64,000 nt of DNA from an uncultured Acidobacteriota bacterium (GCA_963829355.1 CAWHHZ010000008.1:97075-161074), one strand, 5' to 3'; positions 1-64,000 are shown, counted from the first letter of the stretch. Numbers and translations: made by a program. The notes: generated by a model not told the origin, from the sequence alone.

Positions 1-131
1 AAAACATCGCAGCGTGGCGCAGAGTCGATCACTACCGGTCCACTCTGCTGGAGGGCTCGGATCCATGGACACGCCGTTTCGAAGGGCTCCAACCCCTGTC
101 GGAGGCGTATCACTGGGAAAAGTCGAACGGA

Positions 132-914
132 GTGCTGCGAGCGGTCGAGCGCACGGCGTTGATCGATGCGCGGCAGTTGAGTCTCTTCTTTGCCGACAGC
201 GGCGTGTCAGTATTTGTGACCGGCACCGACGATTGGAGAGAACTTTCGATCTATCCCGGCGAAAGCACTCGCGCAACCCCCGAGCAGAAGAGTCTCCTGG
301 CATCACGGACAGACCTCTGGACATCCGCTCTGGCGTCGTACTTCCGGGCTCTCGAGTCGGTGTACGCCTACATGAAAGAGCGTCCGGATCGAGAGGGAGC
401 TCTTTTCACTCACGTCTTTCAGGAGTTCGTATCGGACGATGAGCTCGAGGCCGCGGCGGATCTCTCGGAAACGGAGATGGCTCTCGTCGACGATCTCAGA
501 GCCGCGATGGAAGAGGCCTGGTCGGTGCTGGAGCTCCCCCCGGAGGAGGCGCACTCCCTCAACGAGATCAGCTATCTCGTCCATGATCCCTTTCCATCAG
601 ACGTCGAGATCATCCTCCCGATTGAGCCGTCGCAGGTGGAAGGTTTCGAGCAGGGCGACGGCCGCTACCTCATTCGCAGAACCGGGCTGAAGGAGGCGTT
701 CGGAACACTCGAATCGACCTGGGCCACGCCAGACGTGCTGACCATCTGGATCGATGCCGCCCTCGGGAGCACGAACGTCGAGATCGAATCGGTCATGTCC
801 TCTCCTCGATCAATCGACGTTCCATCGGCCGGCGAGATCGAGACCGCACTCGAAGAGATGCTGAAGCCGCTTCCCGTGTACCGCCTCCGATGGCGCGAGC
901 CGTCGACGCGCTGA
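132..914 (+). CDS. hypothetical protein (acidic, no recognisable domain; N-terminus may lie upstream of window)
   Basis: 260-aa ORF with no antisense competitor of similar length; I recognise no motifs. Not encapsulin-like when compared against the T. maritima shell sequence from memory. Confidence 0.3.
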   Translation: MLRAVERTALIDARQLSLFFADSGVSVFVTGTDDWRELSIYPGESTRATPEQKSLLASRTDLWTSALASYFRALESVYAYMKERPDREGALFTHVFQEFVSDDELEAAADLSETEMALVDDLRAAMEEAWSVLELPPEEAHSLNEISYLVHDPFPSDVEIILPIEPSQVEGFEQGDGRYLIRRTGLKEAFGTLESTWATPDVLTIWIDAALGSTNVEIESVMSSPRSIDVPSAGEIETALEEMLKPLPVYRLRWREPSTR

Positions 915-1017
915 ACCGGGCCGAGTACGACGCACGGAACGCTGACCCGTGACGGCAATCACGGTGCTCATCAATTCCCGGAGGGACCATTCAGACTGAA
1001 CACTGGAGGATCCTTCC

Positions 1018-1308
1018 ATGGCTGATGAACGTCACGAACCGGCACAGGAGTTATCCGAGAAGACCAGAGATCTGCACCGCGCGATCCGGTCGATCATCGA
1101 GGAGCTCGAGGCGGTAGACTGGTATAACCAGAGGATCGACGCTTCCTCGGATGATGAGCTGAAGGCGATTCTCGTCCACAACCGGGACGAGGAAAAAGAG
1201 CACGCTGCCATGCTTCTCGAGTGGCTCCGCCGGCGCGACGGCAAACTCGACGAGGAACTGCGCGACTATCTCTTCACCGAGGGATCGATCGTCGATCTGG
1301 AGGGCTAG
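1018..1308 (+). CDS. encapsulated-ferritin-like protein (EncFtn family), orphan
   Basis: The 96-aa protein 'HRAIRSIIEELEAVDWYNQRIDAS...ILVHNRDEEKEHAAMLLEWLRRRDGKLDEELRDYLFTEG' is near-identical in motif order to Rhodospirillum rubrum EncFtn ('HRAIVSVMEELEAVDWYDQRVDAS...ILAHNRDEEKEHAAMTLEWLRR...YLFTEG'). The ExxH ferroxidase residues are present. The protein ends right after 'TEGSIVDLEG', with no C-terminal targeting-peptide extension. Confidence 0.75.
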   Translation: MADERHEPAQELSEKTRDLHRAIRSIIEELEAVDWYNQRIDASSDDELKAILVHNRDEEKEHAAMLLEWLRRRDGKLDEELRDYLFTEGSIVDLEG

Positions 1309-2492
1309 CCCTCCCTGAGCCCGGTGTCCCATTCAGTTGGGGCGGTGATGAAAGAACGGTCGAGGTCGCGGACCGAGGCACATCCGAGGAGCTTCATGGT
1401 ACGCGTGATGTCGGTGCGCAGGATATCGATCGCCCGTGTCACGCCCGCCACTCCCGCCGCACCGAGTCCGTAGGCGTATGCGCGCCCGATCAGGACGGCT
1501 TGCGCACCGAGGCAGAGCGCCTTCACGACATCGCTGCCGCGCCGGATTCCGCCGTCGACGAGCACCTCGATCCTTCCATCCACGGCGGCAACGATCTCCG
1601 GCAGAATCCGCAGCGTTGGTGCAACCCCATCGAGTTGACGACCACCATGATTGGAGACGACGACGGCGGAGGCGCCGTGCTCGATCGCGCGCCGTGCGTC
1701 GTCAGCCGAGTGAGCTCCCTTCGCGATGATCGGACCCTGCCAGGCCTCTCGAATCCACTCGAAGTCATCCCATGAGACCATCGCCGATTCGAGCGCGGCG
1801 GAGACGTCCGCATACGGCATCGGACCATCCTCGAGCTCGATGTTGGGGAAGCTCATCAGACCGCCGTCCGCCAGAAACGAGGCGAGCCAGCGCGGACGTG
1901 CGAGGAACTGAGAAACGTGCGGGAGCATCGTGAACGGCGCTCCCGACACGAGCTCTCTCACTCCGTTGCGGATGTCGCGCTCACGCATCCCCGCGACGGG
2001 AGTATCGATCGTGACGACGAGCGCCGTGCAGCCGCACGCTTTCGCGCGCTCGATCGCGGCGCAGGCGACATCACGACCGCCAATGATGTAGAGCTGATAC
2101 CAGAGAGGTCCGCGAGTCGCCGCCTTCACGTCTCGCACAGCGCATCCGGAGAGCGTCGAGAGAGTGTAGATCGTGCCCGCCTCGCCTGCCACTCGTGCCG
2201 CGACCTCCTCACCTCGGGGATAGAACATCCTCGAACTGCCGACGGGCGCAAGGATGATGGGAATCTCGATATCGGTGCCGATCACGCTCGTACCGAGGTC
2301 GCAACTCTCCGTCGCGACGGCTGAGCGCGGGCGGAACATGACGTCATCGAAGACGCGGGAGTTCTCCCGCATCGTCCACTCTGCATCCGCGCCACCATCG
2401 ATGTAATCAAACACTGCGCGAGGAAGACGCTTCTTCGCAAGGCGTCTCAAATCCGCGATGTTGACTGCGTGGGTGCTGTCGATCCGGGCCAT
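1305..2492 (-). CDS. FMN-dependent alpha-hydroxy acid dehydrogenase (L-lactate dehydrogenase / glycolate oxidase family)
   Basis: 395 aa. Shows the family hallmarks 'RLPRAVFDYIDGGA', 'ILAPVG', 'LSTLS', 'NHGGRQLDG' and a C-terminal TIM-barrel FMN-binding region. Confidence 0.8.
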   Translation of the reverse strand: MARIDSTHAVNIADLRRLAKKRLPRAVFDYIDGGADAEWTMRENSRVFDDVMFRPRSAVATESCDLGTSVIGTDIEIPIILAPVGSSRMFYPRGEEVAARVAGEAGTIYTLSTLSGCAVRDVKAATRGPLWYQLYIIGGRDVACAAIERAKACGCTALVVTIDTPVAGMRERDIRNGVRELVSGAPFTMLPHVSQFLARPRWLASFLADGGLMSFPNIELEDGPMPYADVSAALESAMVSWDDFEWIREAWQGPIIAKGAHSADDARRAIEHGASAVVVSNHGGRQLDGVAPTLRILPEIVAAVDGRIEVLVDGGIRRGSDVVKALCLGAQAVLIGRAYAYGLGAAGVAGVTRAIDILRTDITRTMKLLGCASVRDLDRSFITAPTEWDTGLREG

Positions 2493-4038: not shown

Positions 4039-4272
4039 CTACTTAGTCGCGGATTTCTTTTCGGGAAGGGCCGAGATGACTGAGCGGAGGAACGTGTTTA
4101 CCGACTCGGCCGAATCGAAGACTTCCGCCACGTCGGGATCCAAGACCACTGCGACGGAGCCCTTCTCGAACTCCGCAGCGAAGCGGTTCGGTTTCGACTT
4201 CGAGTAGTCAAAGTCGTACTCATCGCGTATCTCGTCGGATCGTTCAGCGTTCCTCGTATCTTCGTCGCTCAT
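4039..4272 (-). CDS. brnA: BrnA antitoxin (RHH-type, BrnT/BrnA system)
   Basis: 77 aa with '...YDFDYSKSKPNRFA...GSVAVVLDPDVAEVFDSAESVNTFLRSV', typical of BrnA. ATGA start/stop overlap with upstream brnT. Confidence 0.7.
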   Translation of the reverse strand: MSDEDTRNAERSDEIRDEYDFDYSKSKPNRFAAEFEKGSVAVVLDPDVAEVFDSAESVNTFLRSVISALPEKKSATK

Positions 4273-4514
4273 GAGCAGTCACTTCTCTGGTTGAAAACAG
4301 CCGAATGCTGTTGGTTCTTTCCGTGAAGCATACCCGCAGGAGGCGTCCGCCTCGAATGACCGACGATGATCTCTCGCGACTCGCCCTCGGAATGATCGGG
4401 ATCATGATGAATGCGGGCGAGAGAATCGCCGAAAACAGTCAACGCCTCGGCGAAGGTTACTGAATGATCCCTGAGGTTCAGCGCCGCCTTTCCCGGATCC
4501 CACGTAAATTTCAC
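4269..4514 (-). pseudogene. brnT: BrnT toxin (DUF497), disrupted by a 1-nt frameshift
   Basis: The N-terminus 'MKFTWDPGKAALNLRDHSVTFAEALTVFGDSLARIHHDPDHSEGESREIIVG' matches BrnT. The conserved C-terminus ('GRLLRVCFTERTNSIRLFSTREVTAHERRRYEER') is readable only in the +1 frame from about codon 53. GTG start. Confidence 0.65.
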
Positions 4515-4558: not shown

Positions 4559-4657
4559 CTGAGCCGCCAGCGCACGCCTCAGCAATGGTGCAAGATTGAG
4601 CAGTGGCAGCGCGTGCGCTGGCCGGCTCGAGCGACTTGTTATGCGGCCGTAGTTCAG
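4559..4657. repeat. 98-bp direct repeat copy 1 flanking hicAB; contains a 17-bp-stem hairpin (GAGCCGCCAGCGCACGC ... GCGTGCGCTGGCCGGCTC)
   Basis: About 93% identical to 5150..5248 over about 98 nt. The internal inverted repeat is read directly from the sequence. Confidence 0.85.
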
Positions 4658-4869
4658 ACCGCGATCCGCTCGACGGTAGACTGAGGCTCCGGAATTGGAT
4701 CTCCGTCCTCGCGAAGGCCTTCGAGGTGAAATTCGATCGCCTCGCGGATCAACTGGAGAGTTTCTTCGCGGGTCTCACCGACCGCAACGCAGCCGGGAAG
4801 ATCCGGTACGTAGGCGCCGAATCCTGTTTCGCTCGGCTCGACAATGACCACGTATTCCATTTCGATCAC
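4654..4869 (-). CDS. hicB: HicB-family antitoxin (UPF0150)
   Basis: 71 aa with 'YVVIVEPSETGFGAYVPDLPGCVAVGETREETLQLIREAIEFHLEGLREDGDPIPEP', the HicB N-terminal-domain signature. Confidence 0.7.
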   Translation of the reverse strand: MIEMEYVVIVEPSETGFGAYVPDLPGCVAVGETREETLQLIREAIEFHLEGLREDGDPIPEPQSTVERIAV

Positions 4870-5138
4870 CTCTTCTTCAGCCCCGCCTGCTTCAAAATGC
4901 TGTTCAGCGTCCCTGGCGGAACATCGAGACTTTCTTTCCCTGCCACTGTAACCGTTCCCGGCTTGGTGGAATGCCTGAACTGACGATGGCTTCCTCTGGT
5001 TCTAGCCCGTACACGAACCAGCGCCGAGGCGGCGGAGAGTCGTGCGGTTCCAGGCGCGCGAAGGCCTCCGTCATGATTTCTCGAACCTTCAACTCGAGGA
5101 AAGATACCAGCTTCGAGGCCAGCGTGCAGCAGGCGCAT
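4866..5138 (-). CDS. hicA: HicA-family mRNA interferase toxin (true start probably internal, giving about 60 aa)
   Basis: The C-terminal 50 aa 'RTRGSHRQFRHSTKPGTVTVAGKESLDVPPGTLNSILKQAGL' match HicA ('GSHHQFKHP.KPG.VTVPHPKKDLP.GT..SILKQAGL'). Classic hicA-then-hicB order with a 4-nt overlap. Confidence 0.65.
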   Translation of the reverse strand: MRLLHAGLEAGIFPRVEGSRNHDGGLRAPGTARLSAASALVRVRARTRGSHRQFRHSTKPGTVTVAGKESLDVPPGTLNSILKQAGLKKR

Positions 5139-5689: not shown

Positions 5690-7169
5690 TCAATGTCGCG
5701 CAGGACGCTGCCTGGCACCTCGCTCGTCCAGGACGAGTGTCGGCGTACCGATCGGGAGGATCTGCAGCGACTTCAGAAATTCGATCACGTCGTCCTGCTG
5801 GCTCGGGTCGAGATCGACGAAAGCATCTCTCGAGTCACGGGCATCTCCCCCGTGAAAGAGGATGGCATCAGTCAGCGTCGTCAGATCGCCTCGGTGTCCG
5901 TACGGGGCACTGCTGCCTGCGTCCCACAGCTTTCGGGTCAAAAACTCCTCGAGTGGGACCCCGCCCTGCATCACCTGTTCGTTGCAGAAGTGAGTCAGCT
6001 CATCGTCACACAGATTGTGTCGCTTCAGGTCCGTATACGCACGCACACGCGCCTTTCCGTCCGGCATCCTCTCGAGTCGCGGCAACTCACCCTCGCTCGT
6101 CAGGTCGAACGCGATCAACGCGTCCACGTCCTCGGGTCGCAGGTTTCCGGGAGGGTTGTACGGATTCGGTTCGCTGAACACTGGAGTGTCGAGCACCATC
6201 TCGGGGACGTGACAACTGCCGCACGAGATGCGCTCAAAGGTACTCTCGCCACGGATGATCGCCTCGGCTCGCAGCCGGTCATCCGGAATGAACTGCCCCG
6301 GTACGTTCATCGACGCCTGAAAGATCGTTGCGGCGGTGATGTCCCCCACCGTCAGCTCGTCGTAGACCCCATCCTGATCGAAGTCGTCCGTAGCGGTGCG
6401 CTGCGCCCCGAAGCGCTCCACCGCCTGCATACCGTGATGATGGTTGTACGCGTTATTGCTGAATTCTCGAATCGAAACGACCACACCCTTCTGGTGAAAT
6501 GGTCGGACGATCAGGTCCGTGTTCACACCTTCCACGGCGGTCGTGTCGACAGTTCCGTCAGGATATGCCGTGATCGATCCGAACGACACGCCCTTCGGCA
6601 TCAGTTCACTCGGTCACGGCTGTGCCGGTCTGTTTCGATTCCGCAAGCGCATTCTCACGGATCGCGATCATCTCGGTCGTCATCTCTCTCGCGAGCATCT
6701 CGATCGCGCCACTGCCCTGCATGCCGAGGGTGTTGCGCTCGTCGGAAAACTCCGGGCTCACCGACTCTGTGATGGGATCGAGGGTCTGCGCCAGAACGAA
6801 CACGTTCGCCACGATGTCGCCAGCTCCGCCGGCCACTGGATCGTTGTGGCATCCGGCGCAGGAGTTGGCTTCGGGTGCCGATGTCCGAATGAAGGCAGGT
6901 GCACTGCCAGGCAGACGCGCCAGTCCACCCCCCGTCGTTCCTGGCCGGCCCTGCCCATCGAACCGATTGAACTTGGCCACGAAGAGCGCCTTGCCAGCCT
7001 CCATCATCGAGCGGAGATTCAACGCTCCCGATTCGAGCTCACGCTGGTCCAGGTGCTCCTCAATCACTGGACCATCACCGATACTCGCCCCAAACAGCGA
7101 CAGCCCCGTTCCGATGAAGGCGATCAACACAAAACACACGACCAGCCTCTGCGTTCCCACAATACGCAC
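5690..7169 (-). pseudogene. di-heme cytochrome c / thiol oxidoreductase-like protein (DUF1111 family), split by a frameshift near 6602-6605
   Basis: N-terminal ORF 6606..7169 has a signal peptide and the first CxxCH ('CAGCH'). C-terminal ORF 5690..6601 has the second ('CGSCH') and is in a different frame 4 nt downstream. Together they make one roughly 490-aa DUF1111-type protein. Confidence 0.6.
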
Positions 7170-11285: not shown

Positions 11286-14200
11286 TCACATCGCGCGGGA
11301 CGCGCGACCCACACCACCTGCATCGAGATCGGGAGGCGATCCACGAGCGTTACGTTGCACCTTGACGGTGTTGTTGCGCCAGGCTGGATCGATCAGCAGG
11401 CGGCGCGGATCGATTCCGGCTGTGCCTGGCTCGAACGGGACGATGATGGTGACCTCGTGGCTGCCGGACGTGATCGGGTGCTGCCGGAGGTACAACAGCC
11501 TCGATCCGGACGCGTCATACACACCGATCTCGACGAGCTCGTTCATTGGCAGCACGGTCTCGGTCCCTTCCTCGTCCACCATCAGCTTCTCGGCGGTCAC
11601 GTCCATCGCAACTCGCCACGAGCCATCAGTGAGAGGTTCCGCGGTTGCCCGTCGCGTGGAAAGATTCCAGTATGTGTTGTGCTCGAACAGATCAGCGAGT
11701 AGGGGATGGATCGACGCGGGCGACACTGCGCGAAGCTCTCGATAGAGATCGAGCGAGGTGGGCAGCGCCCCCTCGGAGCCCGCGTATTGTTGAAGCATCC
11801 TGCGAAGCGCCAGATTCACACGCTCCTCACCGATCATCGTCCGCAGCGTGAACATCGCGAACGGTCCGCGTCGGTATGCGTCGAGCCAGTCACTCGCTGT
11901 CAATAGCGGCGCGTCGGCCATCGGTCGCGGTGCGAGATACGCTTCGCGCATCACGTACAGAAAGCGATCGAGATACTCCTTGCCGAACGTCGCCTCCACC
12001 ACGCCGAACGCGCTGTACCAGGCCAGGCTTTCGCTGAGCAGCGGCCCCCCTTCGACGTCCGCCGGGGTGAGCTGATTTCCCCACCATTGATGCGCGACCT
12101 CGTGTGCGACGACACCAAACAGAAAGTCCACGTCGCGCGGGTCCTTCTCCGGATTCATGAGACTGATCCCCTCGTAGTACCGGATGTTCATCGGATATGC
12201 GCGCAGTCCTGGCGACATCCCCGGCGCCGCGACGAGACGGATCTGGTCGTAGGGGTACGACCCGAACTGGCTCGTGTAGTACGCGAGTGACTCTTTCACG
12301 CTGCGCACCATCCGCTCCACGTTTCGGTCACTTCCCGGATCGTGCACAATCTCGATCTCGACGTCGTTCCATCGTGCCCGCTGCACCGCGTAGCCGGCAG
12401 AGAAGATGGCGTAGAGATTCCGAACCGGAGCGTCCGTCGCGTAGTGAAAGTAGCGGCGGCCATTCGCGCGCCATTCGCGCTGCAACGCACCGGGAGCGAT
12501 CGCAATCTGATCCTCGGCCGTTCCCACGATCACCTCGAGATCAATCATGTCGCGGTCCGCGGTTCGTCTCACGCGAGCATCGCGTTCCTCGAGCGGCGTG
12601 ACTTCCGGCCGCGGCGACAATTGATACGCTTCTCGATCGAACGCCTTCCGCAGACGCCGGTTCTCCTGATAGCCGATCGCAGGAATCCATTCGGTCGGCT
12701 CGAAGTAGGTCGCGCCGGGCAGCACTGCCTTCTGCGTCCCGCTGTTCGTAAATCCTCGCGGATCGTAGGTGATGTCGAAGCTGATATCGAGCTCGTCGCC
12801 CGGGAGCAAAGGGGGCTCAAGAGTGTAGATCGAGTGACCGAGATCGTCGTCCTGGAGCGTCGGGCGAGACGGCCGATCCAACTGCACGTCGCGAGTCTCG
12901 ACTTCCGAGGCAGTCGCCAGATGCAGTGTCTCGATCGGCTGCCCCGTATCGTTGACGAGGCGATACTTCCCATTGATCAGCGCCTTCTGCTCCCGCGGGT
13001 AAAGCTCGACCTCCAGCCGAACCGACTCGAGGCGTGGCTGCGCAACATGCTCGTATTGTCCGTACTTGATTTCGTAGCGCGCTCGCCGCTCTTTGCGCTC
13101 ATTGTCTCCGCGATAGTCGTTGAGGACGTTCGTGTTGTAGAAAATCGTGCCTCCTGCGATCCCCGTGAGCGCCAGGGCTACGGCGACGGTGACCGGAGAG
13201 ACCGATGAGAATCGTCGCCGGGCGCCGCGGAGGCGGACGGCCAGCCCTGGCTGGACCGAGCGCACCCACAGCAGGCGCGCCGCGAACATCAGCAGCAGCG
13301 CCCAGCCAAACCAGTACGCCTTGAAGAGAACGACCGGGCCGAGCGGCGAAAACCCGGTCATTGCGGAGTAGCTCCACCCGGGATCGGAACCGAAGATCAG
13401 GAGCTTGTGCTCGATACCGATCAGAGGCGCCGCGACCGTGAACGCGTAGGCCATGATCGCGATCAGGTACCCGAGGTACTTCTGATTCACGATCACCTGA
13501 ATGGCGATGGCGAGAGCGGCGAAGAGCAGGTAGTCGATCAGTTGATAACCGAAGAGGATCTTCAGGTAGGCCAGCGGGTCCAGACCGGCATGGCCCACTC
13601 TCAACTGGATCGCGATGCTGGTGAGCATCAGGAGTCCCTGAAACAGCGCGATCGCACATCCCAGGCCGAGCAGCTGTCCCCACAGGAATGCGGCATCCGG
13701 CACGGGCAAAGGGTCGACGATCAGGTTCATCCGCGCCTCCCGATCCCGCCAGACGAGCTCACCTGCATAGAGGATCGTGAGCAGGATGACGAGCGAGTCG
13801 TAGTGAAGCGTTGCTACTTTCGCGAGCAGGAGCGGCGTCTCGGGGACGAGAGGGACGCCGACATGCTCCATGAGCTCCGGGCCTGAAACGAAAAGCAGGA
13901 TGAGCGCGGCAACCGGAAGAAGCCAGATGCGGCCGCCGATGATCTGGCGGAACGACATGGCAGCAATCTCGAGCGCTTTGCGGAGTCGCGCGACCAGACC
14001 GAATGAGCGGTTCGCGACGGGGACGACGATCGCGGACTGCCGCGGCGCATCTTTCTCGATTGGCGCGCGCTTCCCCCGTAATCTCCGGGAGCTGCCCGCC
14101 TGCCGGCTGAAGCGAAACCATTGCGGGACGAGACCGAGAACCAGAGCCGTCCCACCGATCCAGAGCACCCGGTTCCAGAGAAGAGCGCCGCCGATCGGAA

Positions 14201-14897
14201 GCCCGAGCGTGCTCCGCTCCGCGGTGCTCCATGTTCGGATAAGGCTCGCGGTAGCCGCGAATCCGAGAGGATCGAGATAGGTAGCCAGAGTCCACTGACC
14301 GAGGACCCCTCCGACGATCGACCAGATCATGATGGAACCGAAGCCGAGCGCGACACTCAAAGTGAGGCCTGCCACCAGACGTTTCGAGAGAAGAGCCGCG
14401 GTGAACAGCAGGACGCCGGTGATGAACAGGTTCGGCAGAACGATGATCACGTACGGCGTCAGATATGACGAGAGCCGGAACGGCACCATGGCCGCGTCCC
14501 CGCGATCGCTGAGACTTACGGCAGTGAATGCTCCCAGAGGAATGAGGCTCAGAATGATCAGGCCGATGAGGAGAGCGCCGAAGAAGCGCCCGAAGACGTA
14601 CTGGCGCTCGCGGACGGAAGAACTGTAGAGCAGGGGCGCCGTGCCTGTCTGTGCATCCCGGCTTCCGGCATCGCCAAACAATGCGGCGAGCGCGACGAGT
14701 CCGAAGAGACTCGTGATCAGGACCGCGTTCAGGATGCTGACGGGAGCATTGATCGGAGTTCCACCCTCACGTGCCGTCGTCATGAAGTTCTGCATCAGGT
14801 AGAACGCGAGCACGTACATCGCCGCCATAAAGATCCACGTCATGCGCTGGCGGAACTGATAGAAGAGCTCGAATCTGATGACCTCGAGAAACTTCAT
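11286..14897 (-). CDS. ABC-2-type permease fused to M1-family zinc metallopeptidase (copy 1)
   Basis: 1203 aa. The N-terminal roughly 550 aa are polytopic ABC-2-permease-like. The C-terminal half is M1 gluzincin: 'VAHEVAHQWWGNQ...LSESLAWY' (HEXXH followed by the downstream Glu). No recognisable GAMEN exopeptidase motif. Homologous end to end with 20223..23795. Confidence 0.8.
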   Translation of the reverse strand: MKFLEVIRFELFYQFRQRMTWIFMAAMYVLAFYLMQNFMTTAREGGTPINAPVSILNAVLITSLFGLVALAALFGDAGSRDAQTGTAPLLYSSSVRERQYVFGRFFGALLIGLIILSLIPLGAFTAVSLSDRGDAAMVPFRLSSYLTPYVIIVLPNLFITGVLLFTAALLSKRLVAGLTLSVALGFGSIMIWSIVGGVLGQWTLATYLDPLGFAATASLIRTWSTAERSTLGLPIGGALLWNRVLWIGGTALVLGLVPQWFRFSRQAGSSRRLRGKRAPIEKDAPRQSAIVVPVANRSFGLVARLRKALEIAAMSFRQIIGGRIWLLPVAALILLFVSGPELMEHVGVPLVPETPLLLAKVATLHYDSLVILLTILYAGELVWRDREARMNLIVDPLPVPDAAFLWGQLLGLGCAIALFQGLLMLTSIAIQLRVGHAGLDPLAYLKILFGYQLIDYLLFAALAIAIQVIVNQKYLGYLIAIMAYAFTVAAPLIGIEHKLLIFGSDPGWSYSAMTGFSPLGPVVLFKAYWFGWALLLMFAARLLWVRSVQPGLAVRLRGARRRFSSVSPVTVAVALALTGIAGGTIFYNTNVLNDYRGDNERKERRARYEIKYGQYEHVAQPRLESVRLEVELYPREQKALINGKYRLVNDTGQPIETLHLATASEVETRDVQLDRPSRPTLQDDDLGHSIYTLEPPLLPGDELDISFDITYDPRGFTNSGTQKAVLPGATYFEPTEWIPAIGYQENRRLRKAFDREAYQLSPRPEVTPLEERDARVRRTADRDMIDLEVIVGTAEDQIAIAPGALQREWRANGRRYFHYATDAPVRNLYAIFSAGYAVQRARWNDVEIEIVHDPGSDRNVERMVRSVKESLAYYTSQFGSYPYDQIRLVAAPGMSPGLRAYPMNIRYYEGISLMNPEKDPRDVDFLFGVVAHEVAHQWWGNQLTPADVEGGPLLSESLAWYSAFGVVEATFGKEYLDRFLYVMREAYLAPRPMADAPLLTASDWLDAYRRGPFAMFTLRTMIGEERVNLALRRMLQQYAGSEGALPTSLDLYRELRAVSPASIHPLLADLFEHNTYWNLSTRRATAEPLTDGSWRVAMDVTAEKLMVDEEGTETVLPMNELVEIGVYDASGSRLLYLRQHPITSGSHEVTIIVPFEPGTAGIDPRRLLIDPAWRNNTVKVQRNARGSPPDLDAGGVGRASRAM

Positions 14898-14970
14898 GCC
14901 TCACCACCGGATTGTGGTTCGGGAGGGCGAGACGCCTGCCGGGCATGAGCATACGGGGGCGTCAAAATCT

Positions 14971-15934
14971 TCATTCTGTGCCGCCTTTGCGGAGGGCTGG
15001 AGCCCTCTGCGAGTCGTCCCTGGAGGGACGACCCCCAAGTCCGGACATCGTGCAGAAGTAGACGTCCTCGAGATCGGGCTCAACCTCTTCGAAGCCGGCA
15101 CCGGGGGGGCTGTTGCTGAAGACGTGCGCAACGGTACGTCCCGCGAGGAGCTTCGTCGAGATCACCTCGTGCTCGCGCTCGATCGCCTCGAGCTCTTCCT
15201 TGCTGATGATCGTGCGCCAGATGCGGCCGCGAAGCTCGTCCACGGCACCGAGCGGCTCCGCTTCCAGAAGAATTCGCCCCTTGTTGATGATTGCCATACG
15301 GGTACAGAGCTCGGAGACGTCCTCGACGATGTGGGTCGAAAGAATGACGACGCTGTTTTCACCGAGCTCACTGAGCAGATTGAGGAAGCGGACACGCTCC
15401 GCGGGATCGAGCCCCGCGGTCGGCTCGTCGACGATCAGGAGTTTCGGGTTGCCGAGCAAAGCCACGGCGACACCGAACCTCTGCCGCATACCGCCCGAAT
15501 AGCCGCCTAGTTTCTGCTTCCGGACGTCCCAAAGGTTCGTCTGCCGGAGCAGTGCCTCGACGACACCTTTTCGCTCGCCGCGGTTGATGATCCCTTTGAG
15601 AATCGCGAAGTGATCGAGCAGCTTCTCCGCGCTCACCTTCGAGTAGACCCCGAACTCCTGCGGAAGATAGCCGAGTGTCTTCCTCAGCTCGTCCTTCTGC
15701 CGCACGACGTCGATCTCTGCCGAGCCACGCTCCCCCGCTGTCGGGCTCCTGGAGCGTGGCAAGCGTCCGCATCAGCGTCGACTTGCCCGCGCCATTCGGA
15801 CCAAGTAGCCCGAACATGCCGCGCGGAATGGTCAATGAAACATCCTTCAGTGCCTCGACTCCGTTCGAGTAGGTCTTCGAAAGATTGTCGATGCGGAGCT
15901 CGAGAGGTCGTGGTGCGAGTGCCGGTTCAGCCAT
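14971..15934 (-). pseudogene. ABC transporter ATP-binding protein (copy 1), 1-nt frameshift in a C5/G5 homopolymer at 15732-15736
   Basis: The Walker A frame ('MAEPALAPRPLELRIDNLSKTY...GPNGAGKST...LQEPDSG') starts at the ATG at 15932-15934. The remainder ('EIDVVRQKDE...LSGGM...LLIVDEPTAGLD') is in ORF 14971..15762. Alignment with paralog 19130..20065 places an extra G in 'GACAGCGGGGGAGCG'. Confidence 0.75.
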
Positions 15935-18763: not shown

Positions 18764-19129
18764 GAACGAAATCGCCGCTTTCGTATGGCTGGTAAGCGCT
18801 CCACTCTCTGGCCCTGCGTGAAACAAGGGAGACGGGTGATCACGCCCCCACGTCTTTTGCCGGGAGGCGTACGCACGAAACGGCCAAAGCGACGGGCTGT
18901 CCTGCAGAGCTGACTTCAGCCTCCCGCCCGTCCCATGGACGACTCTCTCGGGATGAGTCGATCCCCACGCGGTGCGGACTCTCACCTCACTCGCACCATC
19001 TACAACGAGCGGATCGCGAGGTTCGAAGCTTTTTGTCACATCGACAAGGCACCTTCGTCACCAATTCTCGAACCCTATGCAACGGCGTCCGTATCCCTCG
19101 AGACAAAGTGACCATCTCAGGGGAGATCA

Positions 19130-20065
19130 ATGGACGACACTGACTGGACGAACGGCATGGAGCTTCGGATCGAGCATCTATCCAAAACCTACGGGAATGG
19201 TGTGAGAGCGCTCGATGACGTCACCCTGACGATCCCCCGCGGGATGTATGGATTACTGGGACCGAATGGCGCCGGGAAGTCGACGCTGATGCGCACGATC
19301 GCGACACTTCAGGAGCCGGATCAAGGTGAGATCCACCTCGGGACGATCGATGTCGTTCGCCAGAAAGACGAGGTTCGGAAAACACTCGGGTACCTGCCAC
19401 AGGAGTTCGGGGTGTACGCGAAGGTCAGCGCGATCTCCCTGCTCGACCACTTTGCAATCCTGAAGGGGATCACGAACCGTGGCGAAAGGAAGGACGTGGT
19501 CGAGGCGCTGTTGCGGCAGACGAACCTGTGGGGCGTCCGAAAGCAGAAACTCGGCGGCTACTCAGGCGGAATGAAGCAGCGCTTCGGCGTCGCCGTCGCT
19601 CTCATCGGGGACCCGAAGCTCCTCATCGTCGACGAGCCGACGGCCGGACTCGATCCTGCCGAGCGAGTGCGCTTTCTCAATCTCCTCAGCGAGCTCGGAG
19701 AGAACAGCGTCGTCATTCTCTCGACGCACATCGTCGAGGACGTCTCCGAGTTGTGCACACGCATGGCGATCATCAGCCGTGGGCGGATCCTGCTCGAGAC
19801 CGAGCCACTGCGTGCCGTCGCAGATCTGGAAGGGTCGATCTGGCGAGCGATCATCTCGCGCACCGATCTCAAGGCGATCGAGCGCGAGCAGGCGGTGATC
19901 TCCACAAAACTGCTCGCCGGCCGGACAGTTGTCCACGTGTTCAGCAACACCAGCCCCGGCGCCGGTTTTGAGCCGGTCACCCCGGACCTCGAGGACGTGT
20001 ACTTCAGCGCCATGACCGGACAGATCGGCCGGCTCGATGAGCCGTATACGGTAGTCATCTCATGA
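19130..20065 (+). CDS. ABC transporter ATP-binding protein (copy 2, intact)
   Basis: Walker A 'GPNGAGKST', signature 'YSGGMKQR' and Walker B 'LLIVDEPTAGLD'. About 85% identical to the frameshifted copy 1. Confidence 0.85.
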   Translation: MDDTDWTNGMELRIEHLSKTYGNGVRALDDVTLTIPRGMYGLLGPNGAGKSTLMRTIATLQEPDQGEIHLGTIDVVRQKDEVRKTLGYLPQEFGVYAKVSAISLLDHFAILKGITNRGERKDVVEALLRQTNLWGVRKQKLGGYSGGMKQRFGVAVALIGDPKLLIVDEPTAGLDPAERVRFLNLLSELGENSVVILSTHIVEDVSELCTRMAIISRGRILLETEPLRAVADLEGSIWRAIISRTDLKAIEREQAVISTKLLAGRTVVHVFSNTSPGAGFEPVTPDLEDVYFSAMTGQIGRLDEPYTVVIS

Positions 20066-20222
20066 TCAGCACGCGTCCGACAACTCATCTCGAGCCCAGC
20101 CCCAGCCGCGTCGGTGCGCTTCAGGGAAGCGTTCGCAAGCCAGCCATCGTACGAGCTCCCGCTACGCTGCACGATCCGGATGCAGCGGAATCTCGCGTGT
20201 CCGTCGCGGCGGAGGTGGTGCG

Positions 20223-23200
20223 ATGAGAAAGATGCTGGAGGTGTTCCGTTTCGAGCTTACCTACCAGTTGCGGCGTCTCTCGACGCTGGTCTATTTCGTC
20301 ATCGTTCTCGGCCTCTGCATCATGCTCATGCAGGTGATGGCCGAGGAGGAAACGTACTTCAATGCGCCCTACGTCGTCACGGTTGCGGTGGTGGTGGGGA
20401 GCCTGCTCGCGCTGCTGATCGTCGCCGCCTTCGCCGGGGACGCCGCGACACGGGACATCGAAGAGCGGATGCACCCGCTCTTCTACAGCTCACCCGTGGG
20501 GAAGGGCGCGTATCTGAGCGGGCGCTTCCTGGGAGCATTCGTCGTCAGCGCACTCGTCTTCTCCGCTCTTCCTTTCGGTGCACTCGTGGCGACGTGGATG
20601 CCGGGAGTCGAGCCGGAGACACTCGCCCCCTTCAGCGTCTCGGTGTATGTCGTGCCGTACCTTCTCTTTGCGCTGCCGAACGCATTCGTCGCGACAGCCT
20701 TGATGTTCGGTCTCGCGACGCTCACGCGCCGGTCGATCGCGAGCTATGCAGGTGCCGCGTTTCTCTTCTTCTTCTCCATGGTGTGCGGAAAACTCGTGGC
20801 GCCGCAGGTTGGCTGGAGCGTCGGAAAGCTACTCGATCCGATAGGCTACGCGACTGTCTGGGAGTTGTGGTTGTCGCTGAATCCGATCCAGAAGAACACG
20901 TTCGTTCTGACCCTGGATATGGCGCTGCTCAGAAATCGTCTGCTCTGGATCGGTTTGGGACTGGCGGTTCTCGGTGTGACGTATGCCCGGTTTCGATTCG
21001 CACACGGAGCCGCCTCCCGGCGACGAACATGGATTCGGCGGCAGCCGGCGGAGGTCGATGATCACGTCCGCCGGGAAGCCATCGCGGTACCGCCGACGAG
21101 ACGAGTCTTCGACGTCTCGACCCGCGCGCGGCAACTGCTCACGATCACGACACGCTCGTTCCGCGACCTTCATACGAGCCGGGTGTGGTGGATCGTTCCC
21201 CTGGTGGTCATCTTCTTTTTGTTGAATGCGCCGGAGCTGACGACGCTGGAGATGGGAACCCCCGGACCGATGACCACGGCACGCCTCCTGGGGTTCGTCA
21301 GTGGGGACGTGTCGGTGTTGCTGACGATCCTGATCGCCCTGCTCGCCGGAGAGCTCGTCTGGCGCGAGCGCGACTCGCGTCTTCATCCGCTTACCGACGT
21401 CACTCCGGTACCTGGATGGATTCCGGTGGCGGGCAAGTTCCTCGCTCTCGCCCTGATGCTCGCCGTAACCCTCGGCATCTTCCTCCTCGCAGGCGTCTAC
21501 CTGCAGACGGGCGTCGGTAGCGATCGAGTCGATCTGGCACTCTACGTTCAGGTCCTGTACGGACTCCAACTACCCGAATATCTGCTGATCGCCGCGCTTG
21601 CAATCGTGATTCACGTCGTGGTGAATCAGAAGTACGTCGCGAACGCCATCCTCGTGCTCCTTCCCGTCGTGAGAGAACACATCGGAGTCGACAGGCTTCT
21701 GCTCTACGGCAGTCTTCCGAAATGGGGGCACTCAGCGATCTCCGGTTTTGGTCCGGGCGTCGAAGCACGACTCTGGTTTACTCTCTACTTCGGCGGATGG
21801 GCGCTGCTCTTTGTGGTGGTGAGTCATCTCTTCTGGATCCGAGGCGAGGGAGGTGGCCTGAGGCGTAGAGGCGCGATCGCCCGGCGGCGCATGACGCGGG
21901 CGGCCGCCATGCTCGGCGCCGCCGGCCTTGCAACGATTGCCGGCGCCGGTGGCTTCATCCTCTACCAAACTTATATTCGGAACGAGTCTCCGTCGGCTGC
22001 CCGGATCGAGCAGCGGCGCGCGGAGTACGAGCGTCGCTACGGGCACTACGCGTCCCTCCCCCAGCCGGTTCCAACGGGGACGAAGCTACAGGTCGATTTC
22101 TACCCCCGTCGAGGCGAGGCCATGATTCGCGGGAGCTATCGTCTCGAGAATCGCAGCAACACGGCGATCGACGCGATCCATGTCGCCATCGCGGACGCGG
22201 CCAAAACGACCGTGGTGTCTTTCGATCGCGCCTCACGCGCGACGCTTACCGACGACGCGATGGAGTACAGGATCTACGCGCTCGATCAGGCGCTTGAAGC
22301 GGGCGAGTCGCTGCGTATGGATTTCGAGGTCGGTATCGAGACCAATGTGTTCAGCGATTACGTCCTCCCTCCAGCCGTGCGGAATGGTTCGGTGATCACA
22401 CACAAGCCGCGAGACGGTCAACATTGGCTGCCAATCATCGGATATCAGACGTTTCGGGAGCTCGACAGCGCCGTCCTGCGCAAGAAGTACGGACTTCCTG
22501 AACGCCCGCCTTACCCACATCTCGGTGACAACCCTGTCGGCAATGAGCAGAAGGGGTATGAACAGGTCCAGCTCGAGACGATCGTCGGCACCGACGCCGG
22601 TCAGATCGGCGTTGCCCCCGGGGAGTTGCGCCGAACGTGGACCGAGAATGGTCGCCGCTATACCCACTACGCCACCGACGCACCGATCAGCAACGCCTGG
22701 GCGATCACCTCTGCGGACTATGCGGTGCACCGCGCCGAGTGGACGTCACCGTCCGGCGAGACGGTCGACATCGAGATCTTTCACCACCCGACACACACGG
22801 CGAATCTCGAGCGAATGGAGCACAGCGCGAAGGCTTCGCTCGATTACAACACGAAGCAGTTCGGCCCGTACCCGTACCGACAGCTCCGGTTTGTGGAAAC
22901 ACCGAGCGCATCGTTCTGGCTGGGGATGAGTGCGTACAGCGGTCTGATCACGTTCCAGGAGGGCTTCTCACTCCTTAGGCCCGAAGATGACTCGCGAGCG
23001 ATCGATTTCCCGTTCGCCGTGGTAGCCCACGAAGTGGGACATCAGTGGTGGGGGCATCAGCTCACGCCGGCCCTCGTCGAAGGCGCGGCGTTTCTGGCGG
23101 AGAGTCTCTCCTGGTACAGCGGCATGCTCGTGGTGGAGGAGACCTTCGGCCGCGAGCATCTGCAGCGAATCCTCGACATGATGCGCGCGCAATACATGGG

Positions 23201-23795
23201 GCCGCACCAGCCGCGTGAGGTCCCGCTGCTTCGTGCCGTCGAGCAACTCGACGCCTATCGGGTGGGGCCGTTCGCGATGTACGCCCTGCGTGAAGCCGTC
23301 AGTGTCGACACTGTGAACGACGCACTGCGGAACCTGCTCGCGAAGTTCCCGCCGGGACGCGCACCGTACCCGACGACGCTCGACTTCTACGCGGAGCTGC
23401 GCACCGCGACTCCCCCCTCGATGCACTGGCTTCTGAAGGATCTATTCGAAGAGATCACGTTCTGGGATCTTCGTGCGAAGGGCATGGAGGTCGAGAGGGC
23501 GGAGACCGGTGGTCATCGCGTGAAATTCGAGGTGGAGGCTCAGAAGCTGAAGGGTGATGAAACAGGGACTGAGCGAGTCGTCCCCATGAACGATCCGGTC
23601 GAGGTGGTCTTCTACGACGGGGATGGCGATGCTGTCTACCGAAGGTCTCATCGCCTTCGCTCGGGAGCGCAGACGATCGAGGTCACCGTCGCTCGTCCTC
23701 CCGTGCGTGCGGCGCTCGATCCCGACCACGAGTTGCTGGATCGGAACACGGACGACAACGCGGTCGCGATCGGCAACGGGGCTCGCAATGAGTGA
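20223..23795 (+). CDS. ABC-2-type permease fused to M1-family zinc metallopeptidase (copy 2)
   Basis: 1190 aa. The N-terminus 'MLEVFRFELTYQLRR' parallels copy 1's 'MKFLEVIRFELFYQFRQ'. M1 motif 'VVAHEVGHQWWGHQ...LAESLSWY'. No GAMEN. Confidence 0.8.
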   Translation: MRKMLEVFRFELTYQLRRLSTLVYFVIVLGLCIMLMQVMAEEETYFNAPYVVTVAVVVGSLLALLIVAAFAGDAATRDIEERMHPLFYSSPVGKGAYLSGRFLGAFVVSALVFSALPFGALVATWMPGVEPETLAPFSVSVYVVPYLLFALPNAFVATALMFGLATLTRRSIASYAGAAFLFFFSMVCGKLVAPQVGWSVGKLLDPIGYATVWELWLSLNPIQKNTFVLTLDMALLRNRLLWIGLGLAVLGVTYARFRFAHGAASRRRTWIRRQPAEVDDHVRREAIAVPPTRRVFDVSTRARQLLTITTRSFRDLHTSRVWWIVPLVVIFFLLNAPELTTLEMGTPGPMTTARLLGFVSGDVSVLLTILIALLAGELVWRERDSRLHPLTDVTPVPGWIPVAGKFLALALMLAVTLGIFLLAGVYLQTGVGSDRVDLALYVQVLYGLQLPEYLLIAALAIVIHVVVNQKYVANAILVLLPVVREHIGVDRLLLYGSLPKWGHSAISGFGPGVEARLWFTLYFGGWALLFVVVSHLFWIRGEGGGLRRRGAIARRRMTRAAAMLGAAGLATIAGAGGFILYQTYIRNESPSAARIEQRRAEYERRYGHYASLPQPVPTGTKLQVDFYPRRGEAMIRGSYRLENRSNTAIDAIHVAIADAAKTTVVSFDRASRATLTDDAMEYRIYALDQALEAGESLRMDFEVGIETNVFSDYVLPPAVRNGSVITHKPRDGQHWLPIIGYQTFRELDSAVLRKKYGLPERPPYPHLGDNPVGNEQKGYEQVQLETIVGTDAGQIGVAPGELRRTWTENGRRYTHYATDAPISNAWAITSADYAVHRAEWTSPSGETVDIEIFHHPTHTANLERMEHSAKASLDYNTKQFGPYPYRQLRFVETPSASFWLGMSAYSGLITFQEGFSLLRPEDDSRAIDFPFAVVAHEVGHQWWGHQLTPALVEGAAFLAESLSWYSGMLVVEETFGREHLQRILDMMRAQYMGPHQPREVPLLRAVEQLDAYRVGPFAMYALREAVSVDTVNDALRNLLAKFPPGRAPYPTTLDFYAELRTATPPSMHWLLKDLFEEITFWDLRAKGMEVERAETGGHRVKFEVEAQKLKGDETGTERVVPMNDPVEVVFYDGDGDAVYRRSHRLRSGAQTIEVTVARPPVRAALDPDHELLDRNTDDNAVAIGNGARNE

Positions 23796-52510: not shown

Positions 52511-52593
52511 TCTTCAGTATGACCCCTCAGCATTCCCCGTTCCACATCTCCGGCATATTCTTTCGGTTCTCTGCATTCAAGACACGCGTTCGC

Positions 52594-53652
52594 ATGAAAA
52601 AGAGTGACTTCAATTACGAGCTCCCCCAGGAGCGGATCGCGCAGGAACCACGCCAGCGCGGGAAATCGAGGATGATGCTGGTCGATTCCGGAGACGGCTC
52701 GATCGCGCACCAGCACATCGCAGATCTCCCCCGCCATCTCGTCCCGGGCGACGTTCTCGTTCTCAACGATACGCGGGTCATCCCCGCACGACTCTTCGCC
52801 GCTCCCAGGCCGGGAATGACCCGGCCGATCGAGATTCTGCTCGCGAAGCGTCTCGCGCCCCACCGATGGGAATGTCTTGCAAAACCGGCGAAGAGACTGC
52901 GTCCGGGCGACCATCTCCAGATATCTGAGCAATTGCAGGCCACGATTATCGAGAAGAGCGAGGGAGGAATCGTCGTCGTCGCGTTCAGTACGGAGAGCGC
53001 GAGTGAAGACGCCTTCTGGCAGGCACTCGAGGCCGCCGGACGAATGCCCCTCCCTCCCTACATTCACCGTCAGTCCGCATCGGATGCGATCGAAGACCGG
53101 GTCGCGTATCAGACCGTGTATGCCGACCGGCCCGGTGCGGTCGCGGCACCGACGGCAGGACTCCACTTCACCAGGGAAATCCTCGACGAGATCGAACAAC
53201 GCGGTGTCGAGATCGTGCGCGTCACCCTGCACGTCGGAATCGGCACCTTTCGCCCCGTGCAGGTCGACGATGTCAGAGATCACGTGATGGACGAAGAGTG
53301 GTACGAGGTCTCTCCCCCTGCTGCCGGGACGATCAACCGTGCCCTCGACGACAACCGTCGAGTCGTCGCGGTGGGAACGACCGCGGTGCGGACTCTCGAG
53401 AGCGCCACCGGCCACGATGGACGGCTTCAGCCCGGGGAAGGACGGACTCGGCTTTTCATCACGCCCGGCTACCGGTTCAGGGCTGTCGGCGCTCTGCTGA
53501 CGAACTTTCATCTCCCGGAGAGCACGCTTCTGATGCTCGTCTCGGCATTCGCCGGCCGCGATCTGGTGTTGCGCGCGTACGCCGAAGCGATCGCTGAGTC
53601 GTACGCGTTCTACAGCTACGGCGACTGCATGTTCCTGCCACGAAGAGCGTGA
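52594..53652 (+). CDS. queA: S-adenosylmethionine:tRNA ribosyltransferase-isomerase
   Basis: 'MKKSDFNYELPQERIAQEP...RMMLVD...VLVLNDTRVIPARL...LPPYIHR', full-length QueA. Confidence 0.9.
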   Translation: MKKSDFNYELPQERIAQEPRQRGKSRMMLVDSGDGSIAHQHIADLPRHLVPGDVLVLNDTRVIPARLFAAPRPGMTRPIEILLAKRLAPHRWECLAKPAKRLRPGDHLQISEQLQATIIEKSEGGIVVVAFSTESASEDAFWQALEAAGRMPLPPYIHRQSASDAIEDRVAYQTVYADRPGAVAAPTAGLHFTREILDEIEQRGVEIVRVTLHVGIGTFRPVQVDDVRDHVMDEEWYEVSPPAAGTINRALDDNRRVVAVGTTAVRTLESATGHDGRLQPGEGRTRLFITPGYRFRAVGALLTNFHLPESTLLMLVSAFAGRDLVLRAYAEAIAESYAFYSYGDCMFLPRRA

Positions 53653-58404: not shown

Positions 58405-59529
58405 TCAGTAGCTCGCCAGGTTCGGTTTGGGAGGTGTCGCTTTCGCGCCGCGGCTCTTCACGTAGCTTCCGCTGACCTGGATCGGGTTGCGATTCCAGAG
58501 GTTGTAGACCTTGTCGACGAGGCCATCGGCGTGAACAGTCATCTGACCGTCCCCGAGGCCATCGTTGGTGTCGAACGGGTTCGCCCGATTCATCTGGATC
58601 GTCAGCTCCGGAAGCCCCTCGGGAGCATACGGCCAGGGCCAGGCCGTGGAGAGCATTCCGTGGAACTGAATGTTGCCGATCTGGTTGGTCAGCAACTGGT
58701 GTGTGTGCCCATGAATGACCGTGACACTGTCGAACGGTCTGAGGATTGCCTGAACCTCATCCGCATCATCCGTCCAGAAGTTCCACGGCTTGTAGTACTT
58801 GTAGAGAGGAGAGTGAGAGAACACCACCACGGGCTTGTTCTTCGGCACGGCCGCGAGGTCATTCGCCAGCCACTTCCTCTGCGGCTCACCCACCTTGAAC
58901 CGTCCCTGAGTACCATTGTCGAGTCCCGCGACGGTGAGCATCCGCTCCATCGGCGTCATCCCCCTGGCCGTCCAGAAGTCGTCCTCGTAAATGCTGTTGA
59001 GCGTGACGAAATGAACACCCTTGTGGTCGAACGAATAGTTCGGTGCACCGAACAGCTCGCGCCACTTCTCGCCCATGTCGAAGAACCAGTCGTGCTCACC
59101 GACCATCATTCGGACCGGGACCTTTACATTCCTGAGGATCTCTGCCCCCAGCTCCAGCTCTTCCGGTTTTCCGAGTTGCGCCAGATCTCCGCCATAGAGC
59201 ACGAAATCGGGTGCAGGCACCAGAGAATTGATGTCGTCCACGGCGCGAAGGAGCTGACGTACGAAGCGCTCGTTGACCACCTTCTCGTACAGGTGAGAGT
59301 CTGAGATGTACGCGATACGGAATGCCTCCCCACCCCCGGGCTCCTGAAAGAGAAGAGGCATGAAAGAGTGAGGATTGAAGAAGACGCCGTTGGTCGCAGC
59401 GGCCCCCATGGCGGCCATCGAAAGCTTCACGAAGTTACGACGGTCGAGATTCTTCAGGTCGCGGAAGACCTCGTCACGGGCTTCATAGTATTTGGTCTCG
59501 ACGCTCCTGATCTTCGGTCTCCGTGTCAT
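58405..59529 (-). CDS. Tat-exported calcineurin-like metallophosphoesterase
   Basis: Twin-arginine signal 'RRNFVKLSMAAMGAAA'. 'GDLAQLG', 'GEHD' and 'VIHGHTHQ' metallophosphatase motifs. Confidence 0.75.
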   Translation of the reverse strand: MTRRPKIRSVETKYYEARDEVFRDLKNLDRRNFVKLSMAAMGAAATNGVFFNPHSFMPLLFQEPGGGEAFRIAYISDSHLYEKVVNERFVRQLLRAVDDINSLVPAPDFVLYGGDLAQLGKPEELELGAEILRNVKVPVRMMVGEHDWFFDMGEKWRELFGAPNYSFDHKGVHFVTLNSIYEDDFWTARGMTPMERMLTVAGLDNGTQGRFKVGEPQRKWLANDLAAVPKNKPVVVFSHSPLYKYYKPWNFWTDDADEVQAILRPFDSVTVIHGHTHQLLTNQIGNIQFHGMLSTAWPWPYAPEGLPELTIQMNRANPFDTNDGLGDGQMTVHADGLVDKVYNLWNRNPIQVSGSYVKSRGAKATPPKPNLASY

Positions 59530-60929: not shown

Positions 60930-61202
60930 CCGCAGACGGGAAGCATCGATGAATCGCAGAGACGCGATACAGGATGAATGACCACCACGTTCTTCCTCCG
61001 CTCTCGTTCAAGCGACCTGAGAGGTCGCAGTCCTATCGAACAGCATCGCCGAGAGCGCCACGGTGATCAGCTGCGAGAAAAACAGTATCCCAGAACCGAA
61101 CCATGCCGCAAGGCAAATGGTCACCAGGAAAGCTGCAGCCGAAATATCGGGCTTCCAATCTGCTTTCTGGTTCTTTCGGTCCAGCCGGACGAAAAACTCG
61201 TT

Positions 61203-63921: not shown

Positions 63922-64000
63922 TCTCGTGCTTCCCTACGCCGTTGGAGAGAAGCTGAGCTTCGGATTTGCCCGAGACAGTTCCAGAAAATCACGAACTTCA

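Follow-up and report, generated by a model that had tools for sequence, protein, structure and literature searches.

The 64,000 nt of DNA analysed here (referred to below as the window) carry, close to their start, a small gene whose 96-aa product is a short, tail-less member of the encapsulated ferritin (EncFtn) family, of the type called s-FLP. The gene lies between a co-directional gene for a putative lipoprotein and a convergent gene for a dehydrogenase, and the following features were recognised:

3 to 914, plus strand: 3' part (about 304 codons) of the upstream gene, encoding a putative lipoprotein of about 362 aa; the frame is open from position 3.
1005 to 1010, plus strand: Shine-Dalgarno-like GGAGGA, 7 nt before the ATG, as read from the sequence.
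1018 to 1308, plus strand: s-FLP gene, 96 aa, stop codon included; ATG start (the sole start in its stop-to-stop frame) and TAG stop.
1099 to 1125, plus strand: codons of the helix-1 metal site, E28, E29, E31, W35 and Y36, placed by pairwise alignment to 5da5.
1177 to 1203, plus strand: codons of the helix-2 motif HNRDEEKEH with H54, E58, E59, E61 and H62, placed by alignment to 5da5.
1270 to 1305, plus strand: C-terminal tail YLFTEGSIVDLEG, where the folded core ends, with neither a linker nor a targeting peptide beyond it.
1305 to 1308: palindromic CTAG, in which the stops of the s-FLP gene (plus strand) and of the FMN-dependent dehydrogenase gene (minus strand) overlap.
1305 to 2492, minus strand: convergent gene for an FMN-dependent alpha-hydroxy-acid dehydrogenase.

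The s-FLP reading frame is genuine, intact and under strong purifying selection. Two metagenome contigs, L001 and L002, encode an s-FLP that differs from that of the window by one residue; in DNA they are 99.2% identical to the window over 2,470 nt and 96.5% identical over 1,310 nt, respectively. A comparison of the window gene with that of L002 gave 9 synonymous changes versus 1 nonsynonymous change (dN/dS of about 0.03), and dN/dS was 0.17 when the 78%-identical gene of L003 was used instead. A scan of the region upstream of the gene detected no sigma-70-like promoter, and the sole terminator-like match in the terminator scan at the gene was antisense, inside the gene and at chance level. 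There is zero intergenic space between the s-FLP gene and the convergent dehydrogenase gene; since the two stops overlap in CTAG, there is no room for a terminator or for the remnant of a tail.

The upstream gene is separated from the s-FLP gene by 103 nt, and the pair is conserved in both near-identical contigs. The original prediction had described it as an ORF of 260 aa that is not encapsulin-like. The latter half of this description holds, but the length has to be corrected, since the ORF is the 3' part of a gene whose start lies about 170 nt ahead of the window and whose product has a lipoprotein-like signal (...LLLTCLAC...), as seen in L001 and L002. Its N-terminus is visible in L001 (8795 to 9724), and a 362-aa protein is called in L002 (4293 to 5381). 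In L001, the loss of 1 nt from a run of C (window position 536) frameshifts the gene, probably through an assembly error. We also asked whether the upstream ORF could be a shell gene that has diverged; this was rejected, as the protein matched no Pfam or NCBIfam family, gave no phmmer match with encapsulin and has a lipoprotein-type signal in L001. The downstream gene had been predicted to be a convergent gene for an FMN-dependent hydroxy-acid dehydrogenase, and the match of its product to PF01070 (E = 1.9e-126) leaves that assignment in place; the protein does not reach the cutoff of any specific NCBIfam model.

Before the window start, 9 kb of L001 hold genes for a DUF488 protein, hypothetical proteins, a dienelactone-hydrolase-like protein, an amidohydrolase-TPR protein and a histidine kinase. 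Within the window, two toxin-antitoxin pairs adjoin each other at 4042 to 4514 and 4657 to 5138 (both minus strand); one consists of a BrnT toxin (PF04365) and a small downstream partner without a Pfam match, the other of a HicA toxin and a HicB antitoxin (PF07927, PF15919). Two proteins of about 1,200 aa with a C-terminal peptidase-M1 domain are encoded at 11289 to 14900 (minus strand) and 20055 to 23792 (plus strand), the second of which also has weak ABC-2 membrane-domain matches. Genes for ABC ATPases (14974 to 15771, minus strand; 19112 to 20062, plus strand) adjoin them, and a LytTR two-component system lies between. Genes related to iron or peroxide are found far from the s-FLP gene: a di-haem oxidoreductase-like fragment at 5693 to 6601 (minus strand; PF06537, C-terminal part only), a di-haem cytochrome c peroxidase at 59529 to 61007 (minus strand; PF03150) and an Nramp-type metal transporter at 62650 to 63933 (minus strand).

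The 96-aa protein had been predicted to be EncFtn-like, and profile, sequence and structure comparisons all agree with this assignment. It matched the Pfam family EncFtn-like (PF22277) with an E value of 1.9e-41 and 140.2 bits (cutoff, 27), with residues 5 to 88 on profile positions 2 to 85 of 85. The match to the NCBIfam model TIGR04535 ("encapsulin-associated ferritin-like protein") reached 138.3 bits (cutoff, 125) and spanned profile positions 2 to 91 of 114, with positions 92 to 114 unmatched; since the coverage stops at position 91, the profile section for the C-terminal extension has no match. The best sequence matches in the PDB were NE0167 of N. europaea (3k6c, E = 3e-36, first of all), the EncFtn of R. 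rubrum (5da5, E = 9e-36) and also the EncFtn of H. ochraceum, and the protein is about 70% identical to both NE0167 and R. rubrum EncFtn. In addition, a weak match to a rubrerythrin Pfam family was found (E = 0.0012). Judged by these scores, the match to EncFtn is clearly far beyond chance. An AlphaFold model based on an alignment of 32 sequences (mean pLDDT, 84.8) has helices at residues 14 to 42, 46 to 73 (long) and 75 to 86 (short), and all the matches listed in a Foldseek search of the PDB with this model were EncFtn structures (TM of about 0.8; rmsd, 1.3 to 2.0 Å). The best of them was 3k6c_A (TM 0.80/0.84, 71% identity), and 5da5 matched with about 70% identity. The predicted fold is that of EncFtn, with two long antiparallel helices and a short C-terminal helix.

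The HxxxEExEH motif is the described signature of EncFtn, and roles have been assigned to E32, E62, H65, Y39 and the entry-site residues (PMC11202242). The ferroxidase residues do align with those of R. rubrum EncFtn: E29, E59 and H62 of the window protein correspond to E32, E62 and H65, and Y36 corresponds to Y39. The entry-site residues E28, E31 and W35 align with E31, E34 and W38. These metal-site positions are invariant among 123 aligned family members, bar one W-to-L change, and the residues of the helix-2 motif (H54, E58, E59, E61 and H62) are invariant in 123 of 123 sequences. By alignment, every residue of the putative inter-subunit di-iron ferroxidase centre and of the entry site is kept in the window protein.

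The original prediction had further stated that the protein stops right after the ferritin-like core and lacks a localisation peptide, which we could confirm by aligning it with tailed homologues. The window protein ends YLFTEGSIVDLEG, 10 residues past the conserved YLF. In the 134-aa homologue P0070, which is 74% identical, the corresponding region reads YLFTEGSIVDLE-AEAMGGAADGGTAAPADT-SLGIGSLRRDD..., and the window protein is identical to it through YLFTEGSIVDLE. Beyond this shared core, P0070 continues with a linker of 37 residues and SLGIGSLRR, and four more tailed homologues are likewise laid out as core, Gly/Ala/Glu-rich linker and SLGIGSLR. Aligned against these five tailed homologues, the window protein has no targeting peptide of the SLGIGSLK, LTVGSL or GGDLGIRK type. 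Read from these alignments, the tail is absent and not diverged, and the stop falls exactly at the boundary between core and linker. Moreover, the convergent gene starts at once after the stop, so no tail remnant can sit downstream. The position of the stop is essentially kept in relatives at 77 to 99% identity (P0001 to P0006). A recent truncation by a nonsense mutation or a frameshift was considered and ruled out, since the stop overlaps that of the convergent gene and relatives have kept the short length.

The ends of the short proteins are themselves variable. For s-FLPs a tail consensus, LFTD(E/N)KPIAHE, has been published, and the s-FLP tail is listed as a putative, uncharacterised signal (PMC11202242). 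The window counterpart of this consensus is LFTEGSIVDLEG. A variant with ...IVDLE... is common among short homologues and is often followed by a His-rich end; since this variant is so common, the published KPIAHE consensus covers only one subgroup. The KPIAHE type is one of several s-FLP tail types. His-rich ends such as ...IVDLEKHHHD, ...EIGHHHD and ...SHHSHDH were seen in many short homologues (among P0012 to P0117 and in L009, L015, L018, L035, L052 and L076) and look like an extra metal-binding feature.

EncFtn genes with a tail offered a positive control for the search for a shell gene. The stop of P0044, a tailed homologue of 131 aa that is 75% identical to the window protein, overlaps the start of a gene for a 268-aa protein of the Linocin_M18 family (PF04454) in L084. 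Used as the phmmer query, this encapsulin picked up all types of family-1 shell in the PDB: EncA of M. xanthus was found with E = 3e-11, a T=4 shell with 1.6e-9 and the P. furiosus fusion with 6.7e-5, and T=1 shells were found, too. With the same query we then searched the six-frame ORFs (≥ 60 aa; 9,895 in all) of the window, L001 to L003 and 80 genome loci of relatives, and at E ≤ 10 the only family-1 encapsulin found was the query itself. Pfam scans of the roughly 40 largest ORFs in the 64-kb window detected no Linocin_M18 protein. An encapsulin gene just upstream of the window start would have changed the picture, but none is present in the 9 kb of the 99.2%-identical contig L001 that precede it. 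These data demonstrate that there is no shell gene within the approximately 73 kb examined around the s-FLP gene, in agreement with the earlier view that none adjoins it. Also, no second EncFtn gene was found in the window.

The original prediction implied that an EncFtn gene with neither tail nor shell gene is a rarity, and this is the point on which it failed. In a collection of 5.8 billion proteins, 113 of the 120 best database matches were 93 to 102 aa long, and only five of the 120 had a targeting peptide. When GTDB was scanned with a single genome for each species, at least 570 relatives were confirmed among 600 matched stretches, and the best 80 were examined. These 80 of at least 570 loci were 67 to 78% identical to the window protein and came mostly from Gammaproteobacteria, with some from Alpha- and Betaproteobacteria and scattered other MAGs. 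All 80 encode the short form, ending 1 to 7 residues past the position aligned with window residue 89 to 95. No shell gene was present at any of these 80 loci, each from a different species, in 1.31 Mb of flanks (±10 kb); the flanks extended at least 1.5 kb downstream in 76 of the 80 and at least 9 kb on both sides in 50. Since short forms are recognised as s-FLP (PMC11202242) and dominate the best matches, the form seen in the window is not unusual. The closest organism-named relatives of the QueA protein encoded in the window (52519 to 53652, plus strand) are from Thermoanaerobaculia or Acidobacteria, with about 60% identity, whereas the closest relatives of the s-FLP (among the best 80 of at least 570 species relatives) are gammaproteobacterial, with up to 78% identity. 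This taxonomic disagreement would be compatible with horizontal transfer of the small s-FLP gene.

Short and tailed forms are not far apart. Their cores are up to 86% identical in the alignment of 123 sequences, and the two forms are thus interleaved rather than deeply split. In a library of representatives at 50% identity, 1,249 EncFtn clusters were found at E ≤ 1e-3, and the best 150 of these comprised short and tailed forms and a few shell fusions: about 57 were short and at least 25 had the tail motif, a split that is only rough, since many representatives are metagenome calls with a frameshift or a wrong start. Three proteins (P0342, P0383 and P0386) are EncFtn-encapsulin fusions, one of which, with 386 aa, consists of the core followed by a full shell-like sequence. 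EncFtn-encapsulin fusions have been described mainly from archaea. The NCBI label "encapsulin-associated ferritin-like protein" is attached to short, tail-less proteins from Sneathiella, Neptunomonas and Bowmanella (P0049, P0051, P0052 and P0058). As this name follows the TIGR04535 profile and not an observed shell, it may point to encapsulins that have not been demonstrated.

The class to which the window protein belongs is already known and structurally solved. Eren et al. (2024) define four classes of these proteins, s-FLP among them (PMC11202242). The s-FLPs were first classed as non-encapsulated, and a crystal structure (3K6C), unpublished and of the apo form, shows a decamer (PMC11202242). 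A full-text search gave no further papers on s-FLPs beside this one and the preprint of Giessen and Silver (10.1101/085266), and no published account of the genomic context of s-FLPs was found in the literature. The window protein fits the definition, with a core of 96 aa versus about 95 to 100 aa and without a long disordered C-terminus. NE0167, the protein of structure 3K6C and the type example of an s-FLP in Eren et al. (2024), has 95 aa and the same di-iron ligands, and both proteins lack a disordered C-terminal extension and a targeting peptide. The differences between the two are small: the window protein is one residue shorter at the N-terminus, has Ser for Cys in the DACKD segment and ends in ...TEGSIVDLEG, in contrast to the ...KPIAHE type that represents the s-FLP consensus. 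Moreover, the host of NE0167 is betaproteobacterial, whereas the source of the window appears to be related to Thermoanaerobaculia. R. rubrum EncFtn (Rru_A0973, 5DA5), the classical encapsulin cargo with a tail (FLP-TP), shares with the window protein the fold and identical ferroxidase-centre and entry-site residues. However, it has 140 aa with a disordered tail of about 40 residues that ends in SLGIGSLK, and the shell gene is adjacent; neither applies to the window protein. P0070 and P0044 have cores 74 to 78% identical to the window protein, followed by a Gly/Ala/Pro linker and SLGIGSLR, and P0044 is in turn followed by the Linocin_M18 gene that has no equivalent at the window s-FLP. Non-targeted Flp proteins have been described near archaeal Flp or Flp-fusion encapsulin operons (Giessen and Silver, 10.1101/085266). 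Like the window protein, they have no targeting peptide, but they are encoded near a shell operon, which neither the window protein nor its best 80 relatives are. The window protein is an ordinary further member of the s-FLP class.

Among the clustered ORFs within 5 kb of the short gene in 83 loci, no family occurred in more than 9 loci, and the top recurrent neighbours, leaving out antisense and overlapping-frame artefacts of the s-FLP gene itself, were generic sensor kinases. In 4 of the 80 species, a tight co-directional run was found in which genes for a rubrerythrin (PF02915; about 140 aa) and a CCG-domain Fe-S oxidoreductase (RFO; PF02754) are followed by the s-FLP gene and a DUF3501 gene (PF12007). 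These runs are located at 8044 to 11155 in L012, 8124 to 10957 in L065, 8135 to 10918 in L026 and 7498 to 10318 in L036, and partial versions occur in three more loci (L044, L048 and L078). A cluster of "aerobic-type rubrerythrin", RFO and DUF3501 has been tied to peroxide defence (Cardenas et al. 2016, PMC5114695), and no paper that names an EncFtn-like member of it was found in the literature. Rubrerythrin and s-FLP are both small di-iron proteins of the ferritin-like superfamily, but rubrerythrin is a four-helix bundle in one chain, whereas the site of EncFtn is built between two chains. The genes of this cluster flank some close relatives of the window s-FLP and are absent at the window locus; neither the CCG-domain Fe-S oxidoreductase nor DUF3501 has a homologue in the 64 kb. 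In essence the short gene stands alone, and the rubrerythrin cluster is its one meaningful minority context.

What could an EncFtn do in the absence of a capsule? It has been reported that EncFtn without its shell is catalytically active and stores no iron (PMC11202242). By analogy with the characterised proteins, the window protein is probably a soluble Fe(II)/peroxide detoxifier that is free in the cytosol, a decameric ferroxidase that hands Fe(III) to another acceptor. It would undergo metal-dependent assembly into a D5 decamer, five dimers joined as a ring and each dimer interface holding a di-iron site, and would oxidise Fe(II) with O2 or H2O2, as suggested by the EncFtns of R. rubrum and H. 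ochraceum and by the decamer of NE0167. The Fe(III) formed might go to another sink, such as chelators or a ferritin, bacterioferritin or Dps whose gene lies elsewhere; alternatively, a partner might re-reduce the site. Since such a ring has no cavity, storage of the product would be impossible, which argues for a soluble detoxifier rather than a storage protein. However, EncFtn without a shell gives insoluble Fe(III) in vitro, which seems a poor outcome for a cell lacking an acceptor. Furthermore, the neighbours in the window (lipoprotein and FMN-dependent dehydrogenase) give no hint of iron or redox stress, and the missing sigma-70-like promoter also speaks against this role. A related function, in which the di-iron site is redox cycled as in rubrerythrin and reduces peroxide or oxygen with electrons from a separate partner without being primarily a ferroxidase, appears unlikely to us. 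It would agree with the rubrerythrin/RFO/DUF3501 runs, with the role in peroxide defence proposed for that cluster (PMC5114695) and with the weak rubrerythrin match of the window protein, but the cluster occurs in only a minority of the 80 loci, has neither its CCG nor its DUF3501 gene in the window and already holds a rubrerythrin. Moreover, the characterised EncFtns turn over Fe(II) as their substrate (PMC11202242).

The protein could also be the cargo of a shell encoded elsewhere in the genome, loaded by an unrecognised signal in its last approximately 10 residues or in mixed decamers with a tailed paralogue. This possibility has been raised for s-FLPs, and an archaeal fusion makes do with a connector of only 8 residues (PMC11202242). 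Mixed rings are conceivable, since short and tailed cores are so similar, and there are known cases of secondary cargo whose genes lie apart from the shell operon; those remote cargos still bear a targeting peptide, however (bioRxiv 10.1101/085266). The tail of the window protein is the end of the folded core, for the same residues precede the linker in tailed homologues, and it does not fit the targeting consensus L/F-x-V/I-x-x-L/I quoted in PMC11202242. In addition, the window offers no second EncFtn gene as a tailed partner, a shell gene was near the short gene in none of the best 80 species loci, and in the one tailed homologue examined (P0044) the shell gene and the stop of the cargo gene overlap. 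Loading into a remote shell is therefore, in our view, quite improbable. The close tailed relatives at 74 to 78% identity and a stop placed exactly at the core/linker boundary would also be expected of a decaying, nonfunctional remnant of a former EncFtn-encapsulin operon, but the gene has dN/dS values of 0.03 and 0.17 and a good ribosome-binding site, its stop position is kept in P0001 to P0006, short forms exist in at least 80 species and the catalytic residues are invariant. The chance that it is a remnant is vanishingly small, and this reading is effectively refuted by the selection data.

The reading of the gene as a shell-less EncFtn homologue that ends with its core, and that may work as a free-standing ferroxidase, is supported by the data presented here. 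The locus itself carries little weight, as it adds one more s-FLP; some wider value lies in the survey of its relatives. All of the best 80 loci encode the short form, no shells are nearby, cores with and without a tail reach 86% identity and a minority of the genes sit in the rubrerythrin cluster; taken together, these results suggest that proteins of the "encapsulated ferritin" fold often do their work capsule-free. Tentatively, the tail-less forms may be the main, shell-independent branch of EncFtn, a widespread cytosolic di-iron enzyme for oxidative stress and iron detoxification that some lineages have tied into the rubrerythrin/RFO/DUF3501 peroxide-defence cluster; encapsulated forms may have arisen from it by gaining a linker and a targeting peptide. 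If this is the case, the family name and the NCBI label "encapsulin-associated" would mislead for most members. If the fold is often capsule-free, names of this kind, given on the basis of a profile, would be no evidence for an encapsulin in the genome.
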